From: Felis catus
Lineage: Eukaryota
Length of the DNA: 64,000 bases
NCBI RefSeq assembly: GCF_018350175.1
Contig: NC_058368.1
Span: 9,920,001-9,984,000, forward strand
Reading direction: 5' to 3'
Below the pieces are notes generated by a model, which was not told where the DNA came from, did not search any database, and saw only the letters and a list, made by a program, of their open reading frames with translations. Shown piece after piece: positions 20,208 to 62,982 of this stretch. A program made the translations under genes and the position numbers. Every line of letters starts with the position of its first letter. Within the stretch, counting starts at the first letter, position 1.

Positions 20208-21524
20208 GAAACGAAGGCTTGGAGAAGAGTTTGGGAAGAGCCTTCGTTTTTAAGGCGCCATACTTGTATGCAATGGGGGCGATGTTTTTTTAAAGGCGTA
20301 AAAGATGATGATGACTGTGAGGATGGGTGTAACCTAAGTTGGCCAAAGGAGTGCCGGAGCAGGAAGAAAATTTAAGAGGCCACCGCAGTCGTCCAGACGA
20401 GAGGTAATGAGAGAGCGGAAGCGGAGGCACCGCTGGGGGACCGGAGAATGGCACGTCCACGCAGGGGGGCGAAGGCGAAGAAGTCACGAAGGTGACTCCT
20501 GGGTTTTGAGCGCAGGAACACGGGGGAGCCATGATCTCATTTACCCAAAGAGGAAACACAGAAGGGAGCCCGCGTGGGTAGGAGTCAAGAAGTGGGGGTG
20601 TCTATCTCCTGGCGAGGAGAGCTCTCTGCGTCCAGAGCTCCGCGGAGGGCTGGCCACCAAGGCTCCTTCACAGATCGGGCTGGTCGAGAAGCCTCTCCCT
20701 GAAGGACGAGGCTGTTCCATTTCACCGCACATCTTCCCCACTGCCAAGTGTTCCCTGGTGACAGCCTCTGCCATCGGTATTTTTAGCATGTGGCCTTTCT
20801 GAGCCTGAAAAACAACATCCACTTCCTGGAACTTCTCCTCCAGCTGACAGCCAGTGACCCACGCGGGCGGGAGCTTCAGCTGGGCCTGACGGGCGACAGT
20901 CTGCCAATCTGCTAGGGGAGAGGAAGGCAGGCCGCAAGTTGGGCACGGAGGCCTCCACCCCGCTCCCTTCTGTCCTGCTCTTGAGGCCTAACGACGTCAG
21001 TGCACGTCAGAAGCTGAAAAGTGAGGAAGCCTGTGAATAAAGCCCAAGAGGCAGGAAGCTTCTCCTGAAATTTCCTTCTATGACAGCTACATCAAGTCTG
21101 AAGGTAGTACCTGGCCAGGTGACGTTAGAAAACCACCAGGGCATAAATATTGCTTTTATAGTAATCCTAGGACAGGCCTGCGTGAAAACCCCCTGGGACT
21201 CGTCACACGTGCTGTTGCATCCCGTGGAGTCAGATCTGAGGCAGAGCCAGAAAAGCATCAGGGGAAACGTGAGAGAGGGTGAGGGGTTTCTCCGATGGGG
21301 TCTGCAGCCCCGGGCCAAGGCTGGGGGCGGCGAGAACCCGCCGGACTGTTCCCCAGAGTTGTAAGAGTTCTCTGCCAGAATTTTCGAAATTGTGCTTTTT
21401 AGAGTTTATGAGCGTCTAAACGGGTTGGAATAAGCATTTTCGGTGCTGATTGACCCCTTAAGTAGGAGTACTACCTCGCCCCTCAGGACCCATATGCACA
21501 AATGTGTTTTGATGCTAAGTGGCA

Positions 21525-27390: not shown

Positions 27391-27960
27391 GCTGCTAAGA
27401 CATGTCATGGAGTTTGTAAGGTGGGCCGGGACCAAGGTGCCAGGATTTTTTATTCTGCAAGGTCCAGGAACAAAGCCATGCTAACAGGAAGAACACATTT
27501 GCCTCAAGTCAAGCCAGACTGGGTTGCTACTCCAGATCACAACGGATTACGTCGCTCTCATTGTTGGGGACTCTGAAGTGGAGTGAAACACCCACCACCA
27601 CCATTGCCCTTGAATTAGAGCCCGACTCCAGCCGGAGGGGAAGAAGCCGGCTCGCAAAGACGCAGAACTGTAGGCAGGGAGCATTGTCAGGATTTTTGGG
27701 TCCCGGTCCTGGATGTGCCTAAGCCAACTTGCCTCCAGCCATGCCTGGGTATAAGAGCCCCCACATGTTCTTTGCTGCATTTCATTTTCTCCAATCCTAA
27801 ATTGGCAAAAGTTGAGCAGAAGAGAGGTTGTGCATCTGAGCAAAGCCTGAGAAGCTGGACTTTCCAAGACATAAGAAGGAGAACTTTCTGGAGATGTGGG
27901 ATGGTGGAAGGGGTGGGGGTTGAAGGGCTGGAAATGGTGGATGGGGAGGATTAGCTTTCT

Positions 27961-28190
27961 TTTTTATTTAAAAAAAACATTTTTTTTAACGTTTATATAA
28001 TTTTGAGACAGAGAGAGACAGAGCATGAACGGGGGAGGGGCAGAGAGAGAGGGAGACACAGAATCGGAAGCAGGCTCCAGGCTCTGAGCCGTCAGCCCAG
28101 AGCCCGACGCGGGGCTCGAACCCACCGACCGTGAGATCGTGACCTGAGCTGAAGTCGGACGCGTAACCGACTGAGCCACCCAGGTGCCCC
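27961..28190 (-). mobile_element. CanSINE (felid type)
   Basis: 14-bp TSD AGGATTAGCTTTCT. Confidence 0.95.
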
Positions 28191-28269
28191 AGGATTAGCT
28201 TTCTAAAGAGGGGAAGGAGTGAGGGCACCGGGCTGCGAGGGTAGAGTAGGAGACAGATTAAGTGGGGGT

Positions 28270-28780
28270 GACACAGACGTTTGAAAAGAGGAAGTGTCCA
28301 CGTGGGACACTTGTCCTTCTGTGGACCTGAACCTATGAGCCTTCCTCTCTGCAGGGTACAAGGAAATGAGTAAGTGAGATAACATTGCAACTTCGGGTCC
28401 TCTCCTTGCACCGCCTCTGACCCCACAGTCAGAAGACTGTACCAACCCCCATCCTCATCTGAAGTGTGTTTTGTCTGGTGAGGCTGGTGAGGCATGAGGC
28501 ACCCAGGAAAGGAACAGAAATCGCTTCCCGGCACATGGGACTAGGGAAGTGAAGGTGCCACAGCTCCGGCAGAGGTGAGGCTGAAGGGGCACCCGCTCCC
28601 ACTGTGGGGGCTCTGCAGGCCCTGATTTCCCCACCCCCACCTCTGCCCCTCTCTCCCCTCCCACCCCCGAGCCCCGTGCAAAGGGGGCGTTCAACACAGC
28701 TGGATGATCTTGCTAGAGCTCTGTAGAGTTGTTGTCACTGTAAACAGGGCCTCACACAACTCTGGGAAGTCAACAGAAGC
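28270..28780. promoter_or_regulatory. Candidate distal promoter/enhancer with ETS/PU.1 and E-box motifs
   Basis: AAAGAGGAAGTG at 28285-28296, CACGTG at 28299-28304, and further GGAAGT cores near 28545 and 28765. Lies just upstream of the putative distal exon. Confidence 0.4.
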
Positions 28781-28785
28781 AAAAA

Positions 28786-28908
28786 ATGCTGGCATTTAAC
28801 CGCAGCTCTCATGGAATGCACGGGAAAAGTCTGAAAACCTCTGAATTTGGGAAATCTTTAGGCCCCCTGGGGAGCCTTGGGAACATAGAAGATGTTGGCT
28901 GTCTCTGA
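28786..28908 (+). other. ALOX5AP: 40-codon ORF MLAFNRSSHGMHGKSLKTSEFGKSLGPLGSLGNIEDVGCL*, probable orthologue of the distal alternative first exon of human ALOX5AP
   Basis: ATG at 28786 and TGA at 28906-28908, read from the sequence. Ungapped similarity to the N-terminal extension of the long human FLAP isoform as recalled (shared LKTSEFGKS). Confidence 0.65.
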
Positions 28909-28917
28909 GGTGCTCGT

Positions 28918-28923
28918 TGTGCG

Positions 28924-28962
<39 letters not shown>
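28918..28962. repeat. (TG)n microsatellite directly after the putative distal exon
   Basis: Direct reading. Confidence 0.95.
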
Positions 28963-28963
<1 letters not shown>

Positions 28964-30204
28964 GGAGGCATCTTCTACGTGCCCCCCTACAAACCCACCT
29001 GAGTCTTCGGGCACATGCGGTGGTTTTAAGAGCCGACGGCTCCCAGAAGCGCGAAGGTCCTGGGACGTACGTCCAACTCCACCTACTTCTGAACCAAATT
29101 TCTTCTCCAGTCTTGTTCCATAAATCTGCATCATGGGGTCGCACTCCTAATCAGCAGCTAAGGGATTCTTACTTGCCTTGCACTAAATAATGGCGAGTCC
29201 CTGAAAGCTACTTTGTCGAGGGAACTCCCAGCCCTGGCTCTTTCTAAAGGGATGCTGAATAAGCATTAGGATAAGTGATGGATGTACTAACCTTAACAGA
29301 AAAAACCTGGGCCGCGTGTTCCGAGATTCATGAAGGGCTTAGACTATGTCTCCGTTCCTCTGGAGGGAGAGGCCAGAGGACCCCTTTTCCTCTCTCCTGA
29401 GAAAGACACCTGGGCAGGGAAGGGCTCCTTCCTCCTCACAGAAAGGCCTTTGCTGTGCAGGGGGAGGGGGAGGGCAAGGAGAGGGGGACATCCACAGGTG
29501 CGGAAACCAGGGGGGTGAGCGCTTCGTCATCGTTGTGTGTGAGTGATCCCTTTCCGCAGGCTGCACTCATTCTGTCCCGCTCTCCCTCCTCCCCTGGCTC
29601 CTGCCCGAGAGGCAGCGGCTGGCAGGGGGCTTGTCGGGGGGGGGACCCCTGCCAGGCTGCCAGCTGCCCGGGAGCCCAAGGGGTGCTCCGGGGACCAGCA
29701 CGTGGTGTGCAGTTCGCTGTCGGGCTCTCGTGGCCGCGCCAGAGGGGAGGACCCTAGACGTGGGAAACATTGGCAGGTGGTGCCGTTGGGGGACTTCTTG
29801 TGGCCTCTTAGAAGACCGCCTGCCAACGGGCCCTGGGCATTTGGCAGAACGTCTCCACTTAGCTTACGGTCTCTGGTTCCTGTTGGGAAACTCAGGGCTT
29901 GCCAAAGTGTTCATTTTACTAAGTGAACAACGCCATTCTCGGCTTCTGTCTTGCTACTCACTGCAGTCTTGTGCCGTGCTCCCCCTTTTGAGCGTCTGTC
30001 AAGGTCGTGAGAGATTAGCCCTTGGCGGGGGCGGGGCCCTTCCGAGGTCAGATCGTTTCTCAACTGGCTATGGCGTGTCGCAAGATATAGGAGGGCTGTC
30101 CTGGTCCTTGGGCTCGCCACCTTGCTCCTTCTCCAGGTTGACGTGCGCCCATGACCGGTTGCCTAAGCCCCCCGGGGCCTCCATGAAGCCCCTAGGTCTC
30201 ACTG

Positions 30205-30410
30205 GCTTTGGAGACTGACAAGTATGGCCTTAAGTACCGTGCTCTAACTTGCTGTGTGACCACGAACAAGTTGCTGGGGTTCTCTGAGCTTCACTCTTCT
30301 CATTTGCAAATGAGGGCAATCATCATAGGGACTTTGGAGACGTTGAGTACGAGCCACCTGGTACCGTGCCTGGTGTATTTACCGCACCAGATCTATGTTA
30401 CCTTTTGCTA
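30205..30410 (+). mobile_element. MIR fragment
   Basis: GCTGTGTGACC...CTCTGAGCTTCACTCTTCTCATTTGCAAATGAGG. Confidence 0.65.
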
Positions 30411-33000
30411 TTAGGAAGATTCTCTGCTGTGAGGAATACGGCTGTGCCACAGTGCCCTGGCCAAGGTGAAGGTGGTGCTGCCTTCTCAGGCAGTGGGCGT
30501 GCAGAGCATCTCCACGTGCATCCGGGCTCGCTCGGGAACCTGGATGCTTCTCTGTCGGCGGCACCGTGCAGGGGAAAAGGCAGCCGCAACCTATTAGCAA
30601 TTACGTTATTGTTATGATTCTCCGAAGCCAAAGCAACCTTGACTGGGACTTCGGTTTCACCTCCTGTTTACCGGGTGACCCCTCAGTCTCAGTGTTCTTC
30701 TCTGGATAAGGGGACAATAATACCTCTGCATAGGGTTGCTTTAAAGTCTAAATAAAGTGACGTGTGTAAGATTGCTTGCATTTAGCTGCATTCGATAAAT
30801 ATTCCCACATTGTCACTCACCTGTCTCCTTATTCTAGCTCTTGATTCTCTTGCCGGAAGTATGGACTTCAGACGACTAAGCTTGTTACGATCCTGTATAA
30901 AATGACCAGCCTTCTTAGGGCAGTTCAGAGAATCAAACGCTGTTTTGTTTGGTGAATAGTCTCCGTTAAATCTGTTTGAGTTGCTCAGGGTTGTCTTCGC
31001 TATGTCGGACTTCGCGGCGTGCGCTGGACAAGTGGGGCTCATGGACAAGTTCCACGTGAGTGAGGAGGGACAGGTGGGGCGGTTCTGCAGGTAAACTTGA
31101 GGCAAGTGCTCACTTGTGCATGTAATTCAAACACAGCCTGAGGACAACGAGGCTGTGGTTCAAATGCTCCTTTTTCCCTCTTTCCAAGGATACTTTTAAA
31201 ATGTGTGTTTGCGTTTGGAAAATGTGACTGGCATTTGTTTTGAGTTTTATAGTGTCACACACTATCGGATACTGTGGATTACTTAAACCTTAAGCCCTCT
31301 GGCCGACTAAAAAAACAAACCTCTAAGTGGTTCTCAGCAACCTTCATATACAATGTAAATTGCAATATCTATCAGGATATGTGAGAACATCTGTTTTTCT
31401 TCTAATGCAGTAAACATATAAGGGTCTCTCGGGACATATTTTAAATAGACTTAATACAACATGCAGGAATGATAAGCAAAATATAATCACGGTCTTAAGG
31501 GAATGTGAGCATTTCATATTAATAACACTGGAAACTTATGTTTAATGCAGTGCTAAAAGTTGACAATTAAGCATGTGAGAGTCAGGAAATTCAATTAAAA
31601 TTATCACAGTAATATGAATTTAGCCACATCCTGTATTGGTTATGAAATCCATTTAGCACCGCAAACAATAATGTTTTCGGCTGGTTTATTCAAAAGGAAA
31701 ACAGGAACAAAAACACTCTAATGCTATATATATTCTGGTACTGTGGTCAGGCTAATTTCGCTGGGGGAAGAAGTTTAACTTCTGAGTCTTTAAATGCCCC
31801 GTCATTCGATCTGAGTATTCTCTTTCCTTGCCTGTTGCGTCATTTCTGTCAATAAAATAAGGCCCAGCAACCCCCACAGGACTTCTCCTCCCCTCTCCCT
31901 GCTCTCTGCGGAGGACAAGGACCCGTCTGCCGCCCGAGGGCACCCTCCTGGGATTAGAGCCGCTCTTCTAATTTGTCCCTCCACCTCTCTGCGGGCGCTG
32001 TGGTCGCAGGGATCGGAATTCTGTGCGGATGCTCCACCCCTCATCTCGAGCTGGGAACCCCTTGTGGCCATGTACTTGGGGGGAAATGAAGCTTGTAATT
32101 CCATTCTCCGTCACGGCACAGGGTTCGTGGACCCTTCACTGAGTCTACTCCACATGCCCCCCCCCCCCCCCCCCCGTTCTGCCGGCCGCAGAAGTCCCTC
32201 TAGTCCTTTGCTATCCGAGACCACGGAAGACGGGCGTTCATTTTTAATACACACACGTCCGCAGCAGGTCTAATATTGCCACCTCACTGTCGTGTTGCCA
32301 CGCGACTGTGTGCGAGCTAGGGTGCTTATCAAGCATTCACTCGACGGTAGCCCGAGTCAACGTGGCACCGGGAACTTCAGCTGTGTGCCCACACGCTCCC
32401 CCCAGCAAAGGGCTGCAAGGGCAATGATAATGAAAGAGTCTCCAGAGAAACTTCTCAGGGAATTACACCAACACTCATCTGGAAGGTTGTCAGACCTCTG
32501 AGAATCACCCTTGGCTCCTCCTCCTTTTATCCCTCGTCCCTCGCTAACCCTTGCAGTGACTCTTCAAGAAACAGTCCTCCAACCCACCAACTTCTGCCCA
32601 AGGTCGCTGCCACCACGCCAAGTCTAACTCATCCCCTTTTCTCCATAGACCTCTGGCGCGGCCTCCCAGCTGCTCTCCCCGTCTCCACCCTGCTCAGCTG
32701 ATGGCAAATGCCCATCCTGTTTCGAGACAACTCCCCTTAAAGTCCTGGAGTGGCTTCTCTCTGTTCCCAAGATCATTTTGAAACTCCTGGCCGCACTGGC
32801 GAGGCCCTCGGTGAAGCGGTTCCCCAGGCCCCTCCCCTCCCATCTCCTCAATCTAGTTTCCAGCTAAATGCCCAGCGTTTCAGTTCCTCAGCTGCCTTGT
32901 GACCTTTCTCCTGCTCGGGATCTTTGAACACATCATTTCCTCTTTCCTCTCGTCTCTGCTAAGCTGATTCCTACTCATCCTTCAGGTTTTAACATAGATG

Positions 33001-33183
33001 TACAGGTCGAAGATTTGTCAACCCTGCATAGAGCAAGGCTATGGGTGCCATTTTTGCTCATTTAGTGTCTCTGTGTCACATTCTGGTAGTTCTCATCGTA
33101 TTTTATTATTTTATTTTGATGAAAAAATTATTTTAATGTTTATTTTGAGAGAGAGAGACAGAGTGTGAGCAGGGGAGGGGCAG

Positions 33184-33218
<35 letters not shown>

Positions 33219-34828
33219 CAGAATCCGAAGCAGGCTCCAGGCTCTGAGCTGGCAGCGCAGAGCCCGACACGGGGCTCGAACTCAAGAACTTCGAGATCAT
33301 GACCTGAACCGAAGTTGGGTGTTCAACTGACTGAGCCACCCAGGTGCTCCTGTCATGATATTTTAAACTTCATTATTATCCCATTTTTTACAGTGATCTG
33401 CGATTAGGGTTCTTTGATGTTATTATGGTCATTGTTTTTGGGGTGCCGGGAACCACGCTGATATAAGAAGGTGAAACGAATGGATAGATGTGTGTGTTCT
33501 GACTGTTCCCCTAACCAACCGTCCCTGTCTCTCTCCCTCTCCTCAGGCCTCCCTGTGCCCTGAGACGCAACGATATTGAAATAAGGCCAGTGAGTCACCC
33601 GACAGCGGCCTTTAAGTGCTCAAATGGAAGGAAGAGTCGTATGTCTCTCACCTTAAATGAAAAGCTAGAAATGATGAAGCTTCGTGAGAAACGTGTGTTG
33701 AAAGCCGAGACAGGCTGAAAGCGAGGTCTCTTGGGCCCAACCGGCAGCCGAGTTGCGAATGAAAAAAGAAAGTTATCGAAGGCCCTTAAAAGTGCGGCTC
33801 TAGTGACCACACAAATAAGAAAGTGAAGCAGCCTTACTGCTGGTGTGGAGGAAGTCTGAGCGGTCTGGATAGAAGGCCAAACCACAGCATTCCCTGAAGC
33901 CAAAGCCTGATCCAGAGCAAGGCTTAGCTCTCTGTAACGCTATGAAAGCAGAGAGAGGTAAGGAAGCCACTCGAGTTTAAAACCAGCAGAGGTGGGTTCC
34001 GTGAGGTTTAAGGAAAGAGGCCGTCTCCGTAACATGAAAGTACAGGGTGAATCTGTAAGCACTCGTGTAGAAGCTACAGCAAGTTCTCCAGAAGATCTGC
34101 CGAAGATAATTCATGAAGGTGGCTACACTCCAGAACAGACTTTCAGTGTAGGCCAAAGTGCCTTCTGTTGGAAGAAGATGCCACCGAGGACTTTCAGAGC
34201 TGGAGAGGAGAAGTCAATGGCTGCCTTCAAAGCTTCAAAGGACAGGCTGACTCTCTCGTTAGGGGCCAGTGCAGCTGATCACTTGAAGCTGAAGTCAATG
34301 CACATTGTCCATTCCAAAAATCCTGGGGCCCTTAAGAACTATGCTAAATCTGCTCTGTCTGTGCTCTATAAGTGGATCAGCAAAGCCTGGAGGACAGCAC
34401 ATCTGTTTACAACATGGCTTACTGAATATTTGAAGCTACTGTTGAGATCTTCTGGTCAGAAAAAAAGATACCTTCCAACAATTCTGCTCACTGACAATTC
34501 ACCTGTCACTCAAGAGCTCTGAAGGAGTTGTACAAGGAGATTAATATTTTTTTTGGATTAATGCTGTTTTCAGGCATGCTAATGCAACATCCATTCTATA
34601 GCTCATGAATCGAGAAGTAACTTTGACTTAGGAGTCTTAAGAAATACATCTTGTAAGGCTAGAGCTGCCATAAATAGTGATTTCTCTGATGGATCTGAGC
34701 AAAGTCCATTGAAAATCTTCTGGAAAGGATTCACTATTCTAGATGCCATTAAGAACATTCATGATTCATGGGAGGAGGTCAAAATATCAACACGCACAGG
34801 CGGTTGGCAGAAGTTGACTCCCACCCTC
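33001..34828 (+). mobile_element. Tigger1 (TcMar-Tigger/pogo) DNA transposon fossil, 3'-truncated and interrupted by a SINE
   Basis: ORF 33992-34522 translates to pogo transposase (FKERGRLRNMKVQGE, EGGYTPEQTFSV, WKKMPPRTF, FKASKDRLTL, KNYAKSAL). Flanks follow the recalled Tigger1 consensus, with frameshifts and stops. Confidence 0.92.
33105..33350 (-). mobile_element. CanSINE with an internal (CA)n, inside Tigger1
   Basis: SINEC body; Tigger1 sequence resumes after it. Confidence 0.92.
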
Positions 34829-35332
34829 CTCTCATCTCCCTGCCTAGTTCTGGGTTAGTGTGGACTACAGGAGGCATTTGACATGAATTTGGAAGGTAGA
34901 CGCGAACCAGCAGCCATCTTTTTATGCTTAGCAGTTAGGCAGGGCACATGGCTCTCTGGCACACACATTCTTGCCTATCTGCTGGCTCAACCAGTTGACT
35001 TAGGGCAGTTGGCTGGGCCCTCAGTTCTTGCAGCTTGTTCTAGGAACTCCTTCAGCTTCTCTGACTGGACTGTGACGAGGCTACCAGATTCTCTGGCAGA
35101 AAGCCGCAGTCATTGAGGTTTGGGCTTAAAGTCGGTGTGTGAAAGATATGGGTTCCAGCCTGTCCTCGTGGTTTCCTCACAGATTTTAGCGTCTGTCCAG
35201 TTCTTGCTTCCCCCGCTTCATGTACCTCTCTACCTGCCCCTGTTTGCCTGTCGGCTTGCCCTTTTAGATTTGAGGCTTCAGCACCAAATGGAGAACCACT
35301 TGTTCTCCACCAAGTGGAGAACGGAAGCTGTG

Positions 35333-36009
35333 CAGTTAAGGGTTGAACTGTGTCCTCCAAAAGACCTGTTGAAGTCCTAACCTCCCGTACCTCAGAATGT
35401 GACCTTGCTTGGTAATGGGGTCGTTGCAAATATAATGAATTAAGAAAGGTCACACTGGGGTAGGTTTTTTTTTTAATTTTTTTTTCAACGTTTTTTATTT
35501 ATTTTTGGGACAGAGAGAGACAGAGCATGAACGGGGGAGGGGCAGAGAGAGAGGGAGACACAGAATCGGAAACAGGCTCCAGGCTCCGAGCCATCAGCCC
35601 AGAGCCCGACGCGGGGCTCGAACTCACGGACCGCGAGATCGTGACCTGGCCGAAGTCGGACGCTCAACCGACTGCGCCACCCAGGCGCCCCTAGGGTGGA
35701 CTTTTGATCCAACATACTGTTGTCCTCATGAGAAGATGGCCATGTGAAGACAGAGACCTAAGGGATGAGCACTAGGTAGTGACAGGTACAGAGACTGAAG
35801 GGCTGCAGCTGCAAGCTAATGGACACCAAGGACTCTTGGCGACCACCAGAAGCTGGGGGGAGCAGAGAGGGACCTTCCCCTTATAGGTTTCAGAAGCTGA
35901 TGGCCCCGCCAACACCTTGATTTTGGATTTCTTCTACTCTCCAGAACTGTGTCCCGATAGATTTCTATTGTCTTAAATTTCTTTACAGCGACCCTAGAAA
36001 ACAAATACA
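35333..36009 (+). mobile_element. MaLR solo LTR (MLT1B/C-like) with a nested SINE
   Basis: GGGTTGAACTGTGTCCTCCAAAAGA...GTCCTAACCTCCCGTACCTCAGAATGTGACC...CCCTAGAAAACAAATACA. Confidence 0.85.
35465..35691 (-). mobile_element. Young SINEC_Fc-type SINE inside an MLT1 LTR
   Basis: Near-identical to the 13510 and 40545 copies. Confidence 0.95.
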
Positions 36010-36154
36010 TTCACATAGACAGTTGTGTAAGCTCGGATCCCTATGACACATGCATATACATGTATGGATTATATGTATAAATATAAATATGTAAACATGT
36101 ATAGAATCTTCTAGCAGCTCCGCTTCTCTGGTGAAACCCGGACTGTGACAAGAC

Positions 36155-37235
36155 ACGTGTTTTCATCCCTTTTGGACAAATATCTGAGAATGGACTGCCA
36201 GGTCATAGAGTGAATGTGGATTTAGCTTTTTAAGAAACTACCAAACTTTTTCCGAAGTGTTTTCATTTGTACTTTGCCCCTTTTTTACATTTACCACTTT
36301 ACGCTCTGACCAGAAATGGGTTGGGTTAAAGTCCCATTTGCTCCACGTCCTTGCTGACCATTCCAGAAGGTTTATGGTGGGATCTTTTACTTTGCGTTTC
36401 CCGATGACTAATGACACCGAGCATCTTTTCACGCACTTATCGGCCATTTGTAGATCTTCTTTTGTGACATGTCTGTTCAAGTCATTTACCCATTTTTTTT
36501 TTAAACGGGGATTGTTCATCTTCTTATCACTGGCTGGGAATAAGTTCTTTATATATTCTGGAGAGACTACATCCTTCATCAAGTTTATGTATTACAAGTA
36601 TTTTCTCCCTGTCTGTGGCTTGCCCTCTTATTCTCCGAATGGTGTCTTTTGAGGCACAAATGTTTTAAATTTTGATTTTTTTCTTTACCCAGCTCACACT
36701 TTTTGTGTCTTTAAAAAACAACGACAACTTTTTACAGCCTAGGGAATCAAGCCCATGGCATTGTAATAGCCTTGTCTGGTGACAGATGGCAGCTTCACTT
36801 GTGGTGAGCACAGGATAACATACAGACAAGTTGAATCACCATGTTGTATACCTGAAACTCATGTAATGTTGTATGTCAACTGTATACAGAATGAAAAAAT
36901 GAAAGAAAAAATAAAAAAATAAAAAAATGAAAAACAAATGAAAGATAAAATGAAAAATAAATGAAAGAAAAATTTAAAAAATGGAAGAAAAACTACTTTG
37001 CCCTCCATACGGTCACAAAGACTTCCTTTTATTTTTTTCTTCCAGAAGCTTTGCAGTTTTCGTTTTTAGGTTTGGGTTGAAGACCCATTTCTAGTTATAC
37101 GTGTGTGATTTGGGCGTAGGGTCAAGGTTCATTTTTCCCCCCCATGAATGGCCAGTTGTTCTAGAACCCTTTGTTTGAAAGACATTCCTTTCCTCATTGA
37201 ATTACTCTGTCAAAAATTAACTGGGCGTATATGAG
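36155..37235 (-). mobile_element. Old L1M ORF2 fragment containing a younger + strand L1 3' end (~36735-36990)
   Basis: Minus ORF KKWVNDLNRHVTKEDLQMADKCVKRCSVSLVI. The insert has GGTGACAGATGG...TACCTGAAACTCATGTAATG and an A-rich tail. Confidence 0.8.
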
Positions 37236-38695
37236 CCTCACAATTTTTTATTTCTATTAGAACTGAATGCGTCCACATCTGGTCATGCCCACTACTGGCC
37301 TCCTTTCCATAGAGAGCCTGTAAGGCAAGCTGATAGCTGGGGGAAAGGAACCCACACGAGATACCTGTTTTTGTATGACACACGTATGATGTTTTCTGCT
37401 CTTATGGGTGGCTTACTTAATCTTTCCACAAGCTCATAGCCACACACTGTGTTTTGTGTGTTTGTGATACGGGAGGGAAGACATTTCCTGGATGCTACCT
37501 CGGTTTCTTACAGTCTGCATTGAGTGTCTGCGGACTTCAGCTTCTATTCGTTTCTTTGCGCTGGTATTATCAGCTTATAGCTTGAGACTCTAGGACATGG
37601 AGATCGTATCTGTGAATGTCATTTTCCTTTGTAAAGCACCTAGCTCAATGCCCTGGGCGTGTGTGCAATTTAGTCAGTAGGACTGAGGTTATGGCCGATT
37701 CACTATCCCTCAGTTTCCTCATCTATTTATTGGCATGAAGGCTCATCTCTATTTAATTCAATTCAAGTCAGGACCATGGGCTGTTTGTTCACGTAAAGAA
37801 AGACCATCTGATAGTAGCTGGGGAAGGAGACTTGACAACTTTAATCAGGCTGATTTAGTTCTCTTGGAGACTATTGATGTGTGATATCTAGAACGCACCA
37901 TGGCCTGGTCTTTGTTGATATCAACTATCTTTCAGATCAACGTGGTCTGAATAGTTTTTAGAATAGCTGAAATTAAAGGAACTGCTTTGTACCCCTCCAC
38001 AGTATGCACCCGTGGGCCTGGGCTATATCTCTACATCCCAGCTAGAGTTGATGGCCCCAGCCCGGGAGAATTCTGTGCCTGCTGCCTCGCTCCCAGCACT
38101 TACGTACAGGGAAGTCTTCGTCCTGGTGAACACGGAGGGCCACCCTGTCTGGAAAGTGAAGGGAAGAGATATCATGGAACGGCAACATGTACTGGAGGGG
38201 AGATGAAGGATATGTGAATGTTGTTGCTTGACAGCCTACGAAGTGGCCCCGTGTTGCCATGGTGACGGAAGCCTGTTGACGCTAAGTGAGCAGCTCCCAT
38301 GTTTTTTATAGCAGCTGGTCAGTGCCACTGCCTTCTCTGAATTGCTGCCCCCCTGAGTGGCTGCGTGGCCCCAGCTGTCCTGATCTCTGTTGACAAATGG
38401 TTGTCCTTCACAGTCAAACTACCAGCAGTACTCTAATTAATGAATGTGCTAATTATCCTTCCCTACTCCCAGCACATTTGTCTAACTAACCTGTCACACG
38501 CTGTAAGTGCAGCACAGGCATGATCACAGGGGTGCTGGGAGCAGGGATCTGGGAGCAGAGGGCTGGGCTCACAGCTCGGAGCCGTGGGATAGTTCTAGTT
38601 AAACTACCTTTACAACAGTGGGGTGTCTGGGGAATATGTTATTTCCTGTGACGTGTATTTGTTTTCCTTTCCTTCCTTTTAAAAAAATCTTTCTT

Positions 38696-38915
38696 GGGGC
38701 GCCTGGGTGGCTCCACCGGCGAAGCCTCTGACTTCAGCTCAGGTCATGATCCTGCAGTTCGTGAGTTCGAGCCCCGCGTCAGGCTCTGTGCTGACGGCTC
38801 GGAGCCTGGAGCCTGCTTCAGATTCTGTGTCCCTCTGTCTCTGCCCCTCCCCCTCTGTGCTCGCACACTCCGTGTCTCTAAAATAAAATAAACTGAACAT
38901 TAAAAAAATAAAAAA
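38696..38915 (+). mobile_element. CanSINE
   Basis: TSD approximately AAATCT(T/C)TCTT. Confidence 0.92.
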
Positions 38916-39039
38916 TAAATCTCTCTTTAGGGGCCTTGGGCCATTGATTAATGCCCTAGCCTCTGAGGGGCCCGCCCAGCACCGATGCAGAAGCACCAGC
39001 GAGTCCCGAACTCTGAAAACTGTTCCAGAAGCAGCATTC

Positions 39040-39225
39040 AGAGCGGTTGAGGACCTAGCCTTTGAAGCTAGAGGGGCCCGGGTTTGAATCCTGGTCCTGC
39101 TCCTTTACTACACGTGGGTCCTTAGGCATGGAGTTTAACCCCTCTGAACTTCAGTTCTAGCCCTTTGGGCAATGGGAGGAGTAACCTGTGCACACAGGGC
39201 GCTGTGTTGAGAAGCAAAAGCACAG
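39040..39225 (+). mobile_element. MIR fragment
   Basis: CCGGGTTTGAATCCTGGTCCTGC...TTAACCCCTCTGAACTTCAGTT. Confidence 0.65.
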
Positions 39226-40544
39226 GCCGATCAGGGCCTCGGGGCCCGTGCCCGGTCTGGTCTGGGCCCCGCCAGGCCCGGCTGCCCCCCCGGGGACCAT
39301 CTCCTTAGCAGTGGGAAAGGAGAGCCCGCCGTGCGCTCCCCTCCCCCGCTCCCCGGGCGCCCCTCGTCTTTTTGTTCTGTCTCAGCAGCTCTCTATTGAG
39401 ATGAATGGCATTTCCAGAGGCTTCACCTCTGATAAGTGTTCCTCTGCGGCGGCAGCGGGAATCTTAATGTGCGCCCTGTAATTTAACGGCCATCTCGGCT
39501 GACTATGAAAACGCTCTTCCCGGGTGAAGTGAACTCGCTCCCTCGGCACGTGCTCACGCTGCCAGGGTGACTCCGGGGAGCTCGGATGTGGCTGGCCCCC
39601 CGTGGGAGGGAGGGGGGTGCAGCTCCTGAACTCCTACCAGGGCCTTCTCTTCTAAAGGGGAGATGGCTGGGCATCACCCACCCCCACCGCCAACCCCCTC
39701 CCCCCCCCCCAATCCCCACACCCCCACCCCACCCCACTCCCACCTGGCGGGGCCCCTGGAGGCTTGGGAAGCAAGAGGAGAGGTTGCCCTTCTTGGAAGG
39801 CAGGAGCCCAGGCTGGGATGATTTTCAAAGACATCGTTGGACTCTGTCGATGCTGTTTGTTGTGTGCCTGTGGACACACACTTACACGCCAGAAACACAG
39901 ACGCCCAAGCAGGAAGGAGACTAGGCTGAGCCTTAAAGACACCAGGCTGTACGAGAGAGACACTTCTTTGATAAGTGGGTGTTTCGATCTGGAATTACAA
40001 GGAGTGGACAGTCACAGTGTGATAGTGTTTACGTACACCTGGCATGCCTCCACCCCTCCCAATCTTTCTTTAGGGAACGATATGGAAACCCCCAGTTCAT
40101 TCGTTTTCCTGCCATCTGGTTGTCCAAGGAATGATATGTGACTACCCAGAGCCCGTGAGATCGTTCTAAGAATTCAGATGAGAGAAGTCAGTCCTTTAGA
40201 GCGTGGGGAAAAGTGATCTGCAGAGAGAATAAAGCTGACAAACCAAGAGAAAGTTGAGAGAGGAAGAGAGAGATTGAAAGAGAGAGAGAACTCTATTTGA
40301 GAGAGAGAGAGAGAGAGAGAATGCCTGACCTCCAAGGCCCAACCACATCTCTGTTCTTTCCAACTTTTGGTTGCTTGGTTCCTTGGATTTTTTTGAGCCA
40401 ATCATTTCCCCCCTTTTCTTTTTGCCCACGCTAGTTTGAGCTAAGTTGCCACTGTTTGCAACGGGAGTACTTTAAAAAGGGACTGGCCTTCGCCTCTGAT
40501 GCATTATCTCTAAGTTATGATGAGCATTAGAAAGGCAACCTCTT

Positions 40545-40776
40545 GGGGCGCCTGGGTGGCACAGTCGGTTAAGCGTCCGACTTCAGCCAGGTCACGATCT
40601 CGCGGTCCGTGAGTTCGAGCCCCGCGTCAGGCTCTGGGCTGATGGCTCGGAGCCTGGAGCCTGTTTCTGATTCTGTGTCTCCCTCTCTCTCTGCCCCTCC
40701 CCCGTTCATGCTCTGTCTCTCTCTGTCCCAAAAATGAATAAACATTGAAAAAAAAAATTAAAAAAAAAAAAAAAAA
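40545..40776 (+). mobile_element. Young SINEC_Fc-type SINE ~1.4 kb upstream of the ALOX5AP ATG
   Basis: Perfect 16-bp TSD AGAAAGGCAACCTCTT at 40529-40544 and 40777-40792; long A tail. Confidence 0.96.
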
Positions 40777-41736
40777 AGAAAGGCAACCTCTTTATGAGGG
40801 TCAGACTCCTTATCTACACGGCCCTACACAGCTCCTGAAACTTCACCAAACTTCCCATACGAATCAGATCTCATTAAGGTGAATACACAAATCTCGCTGG
40901 TGCTGAGCCCCCTAAGCGGTCTTGTGACATCACACCTGGCAGAGTGCCCCAGGCACTCAGAGAGTACTCAAGAGTGTCAAGACCATATCTGGATCGCCCT
41001 AGCTACTGGCCTCCACGCTTCCAAGCTCTGGACACCGCCTCCACGGACGTCTGTCTCTTCTCTGTTGAACGGAGGACACTCAAGCCGGCCTCTCCCACAC
41101 TGCGACGCAGCTCCCTGCGGCCACCGAGTATAGTGGCTAACGTTCTCTTTCAAAGTGAGGTTTTGATAAAAGCTCCACTCCGTCGCTGCTGAAGAGTTGT
41201 TGGGTCTGGGCCGAAGATCGCAGGAATCTCGCATTTTCTGTGTGGCTTCCGAGGGATTGCCATTTACACGGAGAAAGCTGTCCCGTAAAATGCCAGGTCA
41301 CCACCTACCTGCCCCAGCGGGCTCACTCTTACACCTTCTCTCCTCTCTTATCATTAATTACACTGAGGCCATTGTAGGAAGGTGTTTTAACAATGAGCTC
41401 TGAGGGGTCAAGCCACGGTGTTTAATAATACTTCTGTTCAAAGTTTTCCTTAAGGGTCATCTGTAACCTCATTTCTGTTCCTTATCTAAATTCTTCGGTT
41501 TAGTTTTAATTCTCTTGTTGCCTTTTTTTTTTTTCCCTTGTGGAAATAGAGATGTCAGCTGTCCCCCTCTTACTCATTCATCCATTTATTCACCCATCCA
41601 GGCCTTATTCTGTGGCTGCTACTCTGGACCCTGCCATGTGTTATGTATTCAGGGTTTTTTCCTGGGAATCCAAGAAAGCAGTGACAGCATTCAAAACACA
41701 GATCTTTTTGCTGCTCTCTAAATAAAACACAAGTTT

Positions 41737-41906
41737 TGTTTTTAGTTTATTTATTTTTAGAGAGCGAGCGAGCGAGAGAACGCAAGCACGTTCCATGTTG
41801 TCAGCACAGAGCCCGACGTGGGGCCCCATCCCATGAACCGAGAGATCGTGACCTGAGCTGGAATCAGGGGTCAGACGCTTAACCAGCTGAGCCACCCAGG
41901 TGGCCC
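41737..41906 (-). mobile_element. CanSINE (internally deleted) abutting the ALOX5AP promoter
   Basis: TSD TAAAACA(C/T)AAGTTTT. Confidence 0.9.
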
Positions 41907-41989
41907 TAAAACATAAGTTTTATTTTGTCTTTCCTTCCGGCTCGGCTTCGAATCCCTGCTTCTCCTGACAGGTCACACTGAGCCAGGAC

Positions 41990-42180
41990 ACTTTGGTGGC
42001 TAGTTAAAAAAAAAAAAAAAAAAAAAGAAGAAGAAGAAGAAAAAGAAGAAGTCACTGTGTAACTGTGCTGGGACCTTTGGAAATTCTAGTGATGAAAGGC
42101 AGGGCCCTCACTTCCTCTTTCTGAGCAGCACAGGGTGTCACCAGACAGGAGCAGTCCTTGCCGGGGAGCCCGAAGCAAAC
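41990..42180 (+). promoter_or_regulatory. ALOX5AP: ALOX5AP proximal promoter and 5'UTR: A21 tract (42006-42026), (GAA)n, PU.1/ETS site CACTTCCTCTTT (42109-42120)
   Basis: Directly upstream of the ATG. No canonical TATAAA seen. The site is the reverse complement of the PU.1 consensus AAAGAGGAAGTG, consistent with myeloid expression. Confidence 0.75.
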
Positions 42181-42250
42181 ATGGATCAGGAAACCGTGGG
42201 CAATATTGTCCTGTTGGCCATTGTCACCCTCATCAGCGTGGTCCAGAACG
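42181..42250 (+). CDS. ALOX5AP: ALOX5AP (FLAP) coding exon 1, 70 nt: MDQETVGNIVLLAIVTLISVVQN+G
   Basis: ATG at 42181 in context GCAAACATGG. Translation matches the FLAP N-terminus. Donor AACG|gtaagg at 42250/42251. Confidence 0.98.
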
Positions 42251-48503: not shown

Positions 48504-48603
48504 GGTTCTTTGCCCACAAGGTGGAGCATGAAAGCAAGACACAGAATGGGCGGAGCTTCCAGAGGACGGGAACACTTGCCTTTGAACGCGTCTACACTGC
48601 CAA
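48504..48603 (+). CDS. ALOX5AP: ALOX5AP coding exon 2, 100 nt: (G)FFAHKVEHESKTQNGRSFQRTGTLAFERVYTA(N)
   Basis: Acceptor ctttccctctgtcag|GG and donor CCAA|gtgagt. Phase 1 in, phase 2 out, continuing the exon 1 frame. Contains the MAPEG FERV motif. Confidence 0.98.
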
Positions 48604-52115: not shown

Positions 52116-52290
52116 CTTAGTAAGTTCTCCTGCACTTATTCCCGAAGGTGGAGAAAAACAAAAGGGAAAATACGAGTCCCTTTCTCCATGAGCACACAGA
52201 GTGTCGTGCATCACATTGAACACAGCAGAGTGACTTGTCGACAAATCGGGCAAGTGCCTCAGAATCAGACCTGGGGAAATGAAAAGAGCC
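52116..52290 (+). repeat. Left arm of a ~175-bp inverted repeat
   Basis: Aligns by eye to the reverse complement of 53279-53457. Confidence 0.92.
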
Positions 52291-52434
52291 AAGATGGGTC
52301 TGCCAATTTTGTCTCGTAGAAAGAACGGCACAAAACCCTCCACAAAAGAAAATTTGGAGTAATAATAATTTGTCCGCAGGAAAGGCGTTTCCACTGGGGA
52401 CTGTAAGAAGGAAGACATTGGAGAGGTAACAGTC

Positions 52435-53278: not shown

Positions 53279-53457
53279 GGCTCCTGCCCTTCCTCCGGGT
53301 CTGATTCTGAGGCGCTTGCCGGGTTTGTGGACAGGTCACTGTGCTGTGTTCAATATGATGCACCACACCATCAATGTGTTCGTGGAGAAAAGGACTCGTA
53401 TTTTCCCTTTTGTTTTTCTCCACCTTTGGGAATGAGACACAGAAGTACTTACGTAAG
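53279..53457 (-). repeat. Right arm of a ~175-bp inverted repeat
   Basis: Reverse complement of 52116-52290, with a 35-nt perfect core AAGGTGGAGAAAAACAAAAGGGAAAATACGAGTCC. Confidence 0.92.
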
Positions 53458-57179: not shown

Positions 57180-57873
57180 TGGGGTAGACTGAATAAAGAG
57201 CCCCCAAACATCTTTACCTCCCAATCCCGGGAACCTGTAGGTTCTGTTACATAGCAAGAAAGAATTCAGATTGTCAACCACCTGACCTTAAAATCAAGAG
57301 ATTACTCTGGATTATTTGGGTGGAACCAATGGGATCACCAGGGTTCTTTTCCTTTTAATTTTTTTTTAATGTTTATTTATTTTTGAGAGAGAGACAGAGA
57401 GTGAGTGGGGGAGGGGCAGAGAGAGAGACACACACACAGAATCTGAAGCAGGTTCCAGGCTCAGGTGTTAGCACAGAGCCCGACGCGGGGCTCAAGCCCG
57501 TGAACTGCGAGATCATGGCCTGAGGAAGTCAGATGCTTAACCGACTGAGCCACCCAGGCACCCCTAACAAGGGTTCTTTAACTGTGAAGGAAGGAGGCGG
57601 AGGAGTGGGTGTCAGAAAGACCCTCTCGGCCACTGCTCCCTTTGAGGTTGGAAGGGGGTCACAAGCCAAGGAATGCAGGTGATCTCTAGAAGCTGAGAAA
57701 GGCAAGGCAAAACGGATTCTTCCCTAGGGTCTCCAGCGGGCTTGCAGCCATGCTGACCCACCTTGACCGTGGCCCAGTGAGACCCATTTGGACTTCTGAC
57801 CTCCAGATGATTTATCTTGTTTTAAGCCCCGACGTTTGGGGCTACCTGTTCCAGCAGCCGCAGAAAATGCATG
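57180..57873 (+). mobile_element. MaLR solo LTR (MLT1D-like) with a nested SINE
   Basis: CTGGATTATTTGGGTGGAACCAATGGGATCAC...AAGCCAAGGAATGCAGG...GGACTTCTGACCTCCAGA. Confidence 0.85.
57351..57564 (-). mobile_element. CanSINE inside an MLT1 LTR
   Basis: TSD AGGGTTCTTT. Confidence 0.92.
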
Positions 57874-58567: not shown

Positions 58568-58638
58568 CCAAAACTGTGTGGACGCGTACCCCACGTTCCT
58601 TGTCGTGCTCTGGAGCGCGGGGCTGCTCTGCAGCCAAG
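58568..58638 (+). CDS. ALOX5AP: ALOX5AP coding exon 3, 71 nt: (N)QNCVDAYPTFLVVLWSAGLLCSQ(V)
   Basis: Acceptor ttttttattctacag|CC and donor CAAG|gtaact. In frame with exon 2. Confidence 0.98.
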
Positions 58639-62900: not shown

Positions 62901-62982
62901 TTCCCGCCGCCTTTGCTGGCCTGATGTACCTGTTCGTGAGGCAAAAATACTTCGTCGGCTACCTGGGGGAGAGAACTCAGAG
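62901..62982 (+). CDS. ALOX5AP: ALOX5AP coding exon 4, 82 nt: (V)PAAFAGLMYLFVRQKYFVGYLGERTQ(S); the final exon lies beyond the window
   Basis: Acceptor tttccctttctccacttag|TT and donor CAGAG|gtaggc. In frame with exon 3. Confidence 0.98.

Follow-up and report, generated by a model that had tools for sequence, protein, structure and literature searches.

The window analyzed in this study, a 64,000-nt stretch of Felis catus DNA, contains the 5' part of the felid ALOX5AP (FLAP) gene; four coding exons were located within it (Table 1), and exon 5 was not found there. Exons 1-4, with the coding part of exon 1 taken as 42181-42250, match orangutan FLAP at 102 of 105 residues, and the Lynx rufus FLAP model is 100% identical across 41 residues around the FLAP start and differs elsewhere. 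Upstream of the gene lies a short open reading frame (ORF), previously interpreted in an earlier note as the probable orthologue of the distal first exon of the long human FLAP isoform. The description of this ORF was confirmed in each of its elements, with the ATG at 28786-28788, the TGA at 28906-28908, 40 codons, the translation as originally given, and a distance to the FLAP ATG (13,395 nt to 42181) in agreement with the roughly 13.4 kb first reported. The start codon stands in the context AAAAAATGC, with an A at -3 and a C at +4. ORFs this long that begin with an ATG are common here (27 of the 215 plus-strand ATGs in approximately 15 kb of surrounding sequence open ORFs of at least 40 codons).

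Table 1. Window coordinates of the FLAP exons, the upstream ORF, and the indels and splice sites discussed in the text
Feature	Position	Strand	Remark
Block orthologous to the primate ALOX5AP distal-exon region	28433..29025	+	frameshift-aware alignment to P0039
ATG..TGA ORF, 40 codons	28786..28908	+	ATG orthologous to the primate long FLAP start codon
1-nt deficit relative to primates	28807..28810	+	common to the elephant-seal model
1-nt excess relative to primates and seal	28824..28827	+	primate frame restored
Excess of about 14 nt over primates (7 nt over seal)	28888..28901	+	frameshift-aware alignment
Cryptic GT before the stop, GCT/GTCTCT	28901..28902	+	-4.85 bits; FLAP frame only via acceptor 42134
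GT of GAG/GTGCTC	28910..28911	+	after the TGA; 2.9 bits
Orthologue of the primate distal donor	28916..28925	+	best at 28916, CTC/GTTGTG, -5.55 bits
(TG)22.5 microsatellite	28918..28962	+	also directly after the exon in primate read-through records
FLAP first coding exon with 5' part	42129..42250	+	ATG 42181, donor 42250/42251
FLAP coding exon 2	48504..48603	+	tblastn and donor scoring
FLAP coding exon 3	58568..58638	+	tblastn and donor scoring
FLAP coding exon 4	62901..62982	+	tblastn and donor scoring

Upstream exons and their acceptor

The acceptor at 42128/42129 is in phase 2 and is equivalent to the primate acceptor, and an upstream exon is joined to it in the Lynx rufus RefSeq model. Carnivore gene models predict the splicing of upstream exons other than the ORF region into the FLAP exon, at approximately 38.1 kb; an alternative ALOX5AP exon corresponding to 38105-38197 is present in the models of Lynx rufus (P0001), red fox (P0002), and raccoon dog (P0017). 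At the junction of this exon in the lynx model, the window carries GG, not GT, at 38198, and the donor therefore seems to be lost or different in the window. Additionally, the orangutan models P0007, P0011, and P0012 have other N-extensions, which we take to be Alu-like from their resemblance, joined to the same FLAP acceptor, showing that this acceptor readily takes recent upstream exons.

Several other segments of the window were matched by predicted exons. In the southern elephant seal FLAP model P0025, the first predicted exon corresponds to 20787-20936 (69% over 39 residues); this segment is flanked by stops in the window and is probably conserved non-coding DNA caught by gene prediction. 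The intronic segments 52116-52425, 53279-53457, and 57644-57763 correspond to alternative 3' exons of the Lynx rufus isoform X9 model, and 52116-52290 resembles 53279-53457, with the two stretches oppositely oriented. An interspersed repeat of approximately 250 nt, presumably a carnivore SINE by its resemblance, occurs in about 25 copies across the window (e.g., 27956-28206).

Homology with the primate distal exon and differences in frame

According to PMC12821811, human ALOX5AP variant 2 has an extra exon with an upstream in-frame AUG, and variant 1 (161 residues) is predominant. The felid ORF shares with human variant 2 (NM_001204406.2; NP_001191335.1, 218 aa) the locus, the ATG, and the position and phase of the acceptor; it differs from it in a frame altered by a -1 and a +1 indel and an excess of about 14 nt, in a stop that precedes a weak donor, and in an exon lying 13.4 kb from the main ATG. 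Orthology to the primate distal exon, as originally proposed, was well supported by tblastn: all eight primate long forms matched 28786-28930 with E values of 1.4e-8 to 3.3e-5, on the correct strand and in the correct order, in a syntenic position upstream of FLAP. These E values, taken with the position, strand, and order, indicate homology and not chance, and chance similarity was rejected as an explanation. The window segment 28786-28908 and the primate distal exon thus descend from the same sequence.

The long FLAP forms compared (56-59 extra residues) came from orangutan, gibbon, gelada, a langur, and three lemurs; a long form from a snub-nosed monkey was also retrieved, which is shorter and frameshifted. 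The comparison drew on 15 of the 31 members of the main FLAP cluster. The human N-terminus, as quoted in the earlier note, is present letter for letter in record P0039 and is identical to the ORF at 20 of 34 residues. Both P0039 and the similar record P0040 are translations that read through genomic sequence of a primate-type region, from the upstream flank across the exon to the start of the intron. Alignment to P0039 showed that the flanks of the ORF are homologous as well, and the orthologous block of approximately 600 bp (28433 to about 29025) spans the upstream flank, the exon, the TG repeat, and the intron start, with 14 indels. When orthologous DNA was sought in metagenomes, none of 149 pattern matches was confirmed; the comparison was therefore protein-based throughout.

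Searches with the ORF as a query gave no protein relatives, although short queries make such searches weak: a protein search with the 40 residues returned one candidate and no match at E values up to 10, a comparison with 1.84 billion representative proteins returned zero matches, and exact look-ups of the ORF and seven overlapping ORFs found none. A further search, for which the query was the first 40 residues of the long orangutan FLAP, returned two candidates, both of them primate-type. Among the 13 non-primate FLAP models tested for a distal exon, one, the southern elephant seal model P0025, had it, and not from this ATG.

The first 34 residues of the ORF had been described as aligning without gaps to the human extension. 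This holds at the protein level, where the gapless identity to the primate long isoforms is 19-22 of 34 residues (8/8 isoforms), but not at the DNA level, where a -1 and a +1 frameshift are hidden. Three of the 14 indels lie inside the ORF (-1, +1, and about +14), and codons 8-14, approximately, are read in a frame other than that of the primates; in a three-frame view, leaving the frame uncompensated at 28824-28827 leads to a TGA a few codons on. Allowing two frameshifts improved on the gapless alignment by 21.8-29.0 bits for 8/8 primate sequences under three assumed distances, although these sequences share ancestry and are therefore not independent, whereas the maximum gain in 400 indel-free neutral simulations was 10.7 bits. 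Record P0020, which is already frameshifted, and the near-duplicates P0034 and P0040 were left out of this test. Judged from these alignments, the gapless appearance is a coincidence of opposite indels. The extra nucleotides at 28888-28901 then bring the TGA at 28906 into frame ahead of the orthologous donor.

The elephant seal offers a third state of the same region, for which the evidence is a single predicted model. In P0025 the -1 indel is present (21.9 vs. -30.1 bits), the +1 indel is absent, and there are seven rather than 14 extra bases. When the five residues of the model at this place were read through all their synonymous possibilities, 448 of 576 closed the ATG frame with a stop; the seal ORF beginning at this ATG would probably end near codon 16. 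From this model we infer that the 40-codon length in the cat would be an accident of indels that the seal lacks (+1 and +7). Across the cat, seal, and primates compared, the frame, length, and stop of the ORF are not kept.

These indels bear on the possibility, which we consider very unlikely, that an ancestral boreoeutherian coding exon was lost in carnivores and that the -1/+1 changes in the cat are a compensatory pair kept by selection on the peptide. The ATG is common to felid and primates, the frame is restored within about six codons, and two orders are too few to polarize the indels. The felid pair also resembles the compensatory frameshift pairs of PMC8935012, which occur in real, weakly constrained coding regions. 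However, the retained cases of PMC8935012 are those with no extant intermediate; the uncompensated state, with the -1 only, is seen in a living species (seal), and on this ground the felid pair does not fit a compensatory pair in coding DNA. The restored frame still stops before the donor, and the divergence of the segment is neutral-like. With a living intermediate and an ORF that does not join FLAP, the felid indel pair looks like chance in non-coding DNA.

Splice sites and possible products of the distal region

Donor-like sites were scored with a rough matrix, on which real FLAP donors reach 7.6-9.0 bits. The site adjoining the stop, at 28909/28910, was found to be the best donor-like site there, in agreement with the earlier note. 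Two further statements of that note on the donor were not upheld. The position 28901/28902 had been taken as the equivalent of the primate donor, but about 14 extra nucleotides follow codon 34 and the primate donor coincides with the start of the TG repeat; as the orthologous donor, 28902 was disfavored at -7.8 bits vs. -0.2 to +3.6 bits. Likewise, a GT had been reported as lacking at the equivalent position, but one is present at the actual orthologous site, which is 28916 by full alignment, with 28923-28925 as alternative positions (28923 scores 0.77), and thus at least 14 nt beyond the position first given. In the primate records, the phase-2 end of the exon abuts the TG repeat, and the inferred donor scores 5.3-8.0 bits. 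No open frame runs from the felid ATG to the orthologous donor, as the TGA at 28906 precedes 28916-28925. Additionally, three donor-like sites of 8.5-9.7 bits lie upstream of the ORF ATG, at 28478, 28487, and 28575; with these stronger donors, a distal exon or transcript need not include the ORF.

The conclusion that this species cannot make N-extended FLAP therefore stands for the primate route, for a cause other than the one first given, namely that the orthologous donor is weak and lies after the stop; it does not stand in full, as a poor cryptic in-frame route is formally open. Splicing from the cryptic donor at 28900/28901 to the acceptor at 42134 is the sole pair among nine donor-acceptor pairs that is both in frame and free of stops, and it would add 54 residues to FLAP. 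That the cat still makes such a protein is nevertheless highly improbable: 88% of the GTs in the window score as well as or better than this one, the donor lies inside a stretch that primates lack, and protein searches found no felid model with such an N-terminus.

A working, species-specific uORF is also quite unlikely. Such a uORF would require a distal promoter and a leader exon spliced from 28909 to 42129 or 42134, with the 40 codons translated, FLAP reached only via re-initiation or leaky scanning, and FLAP output from that transcript damped. The A at -3 of the ATG, the donor immediately behind the stop, which is weak but usable, and the joining of an upstream exon to the acceptor at 42129 in the lynx model are consistent with it, and PMC2674463 allows species-specific regulation by non-conserved uORFs in alternative 5'UTRs. 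Like the uORFs of alternative 5'UTR exons described there, the felid ORF starts with an AUG, may lie in an alternative leader, and ends before the main ORF; unlike them, it is not conserved, and its leader is putative. Against such a uORF, its length and stop depend on indels absent from seal and primates, no constraint was seen, the much stronger upstream donors could end a distal exon before the ORF, and the region has no CpG island (o/e 0.25).

Part of 28500-28915 was found in 18 of the 24 public sequencing runs listed (seven studies), in which DNA carry-over is possible. Four of these runs are recorded as RNA, all of them metatranscriptomes, with shares of 0.44-0.72, and ten others are guesses and may be DNA. 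A purine motif at 28287-28296, about 500 nt upstream of the ORF, is one that we take to be PU.1-like, from one match scored without a control.

Divergence and the origin of the long isoform

The distance implied by comparing primate residues with window codons was 0.28 (0.17-0.44) for the ORF, 0.34 for the upstream flank, and 0.41 for the intron flank, in comparison with 0.015 for FLAP coding exons 1-4; the ORF did not differ from its flanks (p=0.41) and differed strongly from the FLAP body (p=1e-9). Translated identity was similarly 23/38 in the ORF vs. 67/129 in the flanks (Fisher p=0.36). Slower amino-acid change in the ORF than in the flanking DNA was not seen in this protein-based test, which has little power on 38 codons. 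The most similar part is a core at 28818-28876, with 11 of 15 codons matching vs. 5-10 elsewhere, and the ATG with its A-rich context is kept between primates and felid. Given the weakness of the test and this more similar core, mild constraint at the DNA level is possible. In neutral simulations, at least 20 of 34 identities arose in 23-65% of cases at distances of 0.25-0.35 and were uncommon at 0.40-0.45 (5-10%).

Overall, the alignments favor the reading, which we consider likely, that the orthologous segment 28786-28908, lying upstream of felid ALOX5AP, has been evolving without protein-level constraint. With its divergence equal to that of the flanks and a frame both broken and patched by indels, the segment is most likely ordinary non-coding DNA and not a working mini-gene. 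FLAP would be made from the proximal ATG at 42181, and the distal segment would be upstream DNA drifting since the carnivore-primate split, perhaps within a minor leader exon. Should the distal region be transcribed, the product would be a minor non-coding leader, and the uORF in it would be incidental and have no conserved role. If the transcript were spliced at 28909, such a uORF could, through the general scanning mechanism, lower FLAP translation from it. The uORF or micropeptide role raised in the earlier note is not borne out as a conserved one, as the frame differs among cat, seal, and primates and the divergence equals that of the flanks; the note's fallback, neutral drift with a lineage-specific coding frame restricted to primates, is the one favored by the evidence. 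Among the species sampled, the 57-residue coding frame is probably restricted to primates.

A more novel possibility, which we regard as unlikely, is that primate FLAP gained its 57-residue extension de novo on the primate stem, when small indels within a non-coding distal leader exon brought an old upstream ATG into frame with FLAP, and that this frame has stayed open since the lemur-ape split; the felid sequence would then represent the non-coding precursor state. The distal-exon frame is open in the models of orangutan, gibbon, gelada, a langur, and three lemurs, and the rough probability of its neutral survival over ape-lemur depth is 0.02-0.08, assuming an ape-lemur distance of 0.15-0.25. 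However, the models were selected for openness, and those of lemurs may be projections from human. The colobine P0020 (Rhinopithecus roxellana) is frameshifted in the distal exon and starts at another ATG in a shifted frame, and orangutan-lemur identity is near-neutral in the exon (26-27/38) vs. 151-154/161 in the body. The protein of the second human isoform was moreover reported in 2018 as not experimentally validated (PMC6003571), and the FLAP peptides in the accessible part of PMC9883352 are from the body only.

In comparison with the primate-restricted upstream N-terminal extensions described in PMC11317171, the FLAP extension is similar in that its frame is not kept outside primates and purifying selection was not detected. 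Those extensions are backed by peptides and begin, for the most part, at non-AUG codons in a GC-rich contiguous 5'UTR, whereas the FLAP extension uses a spliced distal exon with an AUG and is open in lemur models too. ALOX5AP was absent from the one PMC11317171 supplement searched and from the PMC8140736 supplement searched. A literature search that covered a minority of subscription papers and no bioRxiv supplements found nothing on the evolution or function of the distal exon or on an ALOX5AP uORF.

For the cat, the ORF matters little for function, and the analysis serves as a useful correction; it also provides an example of a gapless 59% protein match hiding two frameshifts in drifting DNA. 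Were a de novo origin in primates true, an N-terminal isoform of a drug target in leukotriene synthesis would have been born in primates and would be missing from the cat, the seal, and probably other model animals. More generally, these results suggest that the RefSeq 218-residue FLAP isoform, which is used for ALOX5AP variant numbering, is not an ancestral mammalian protein.
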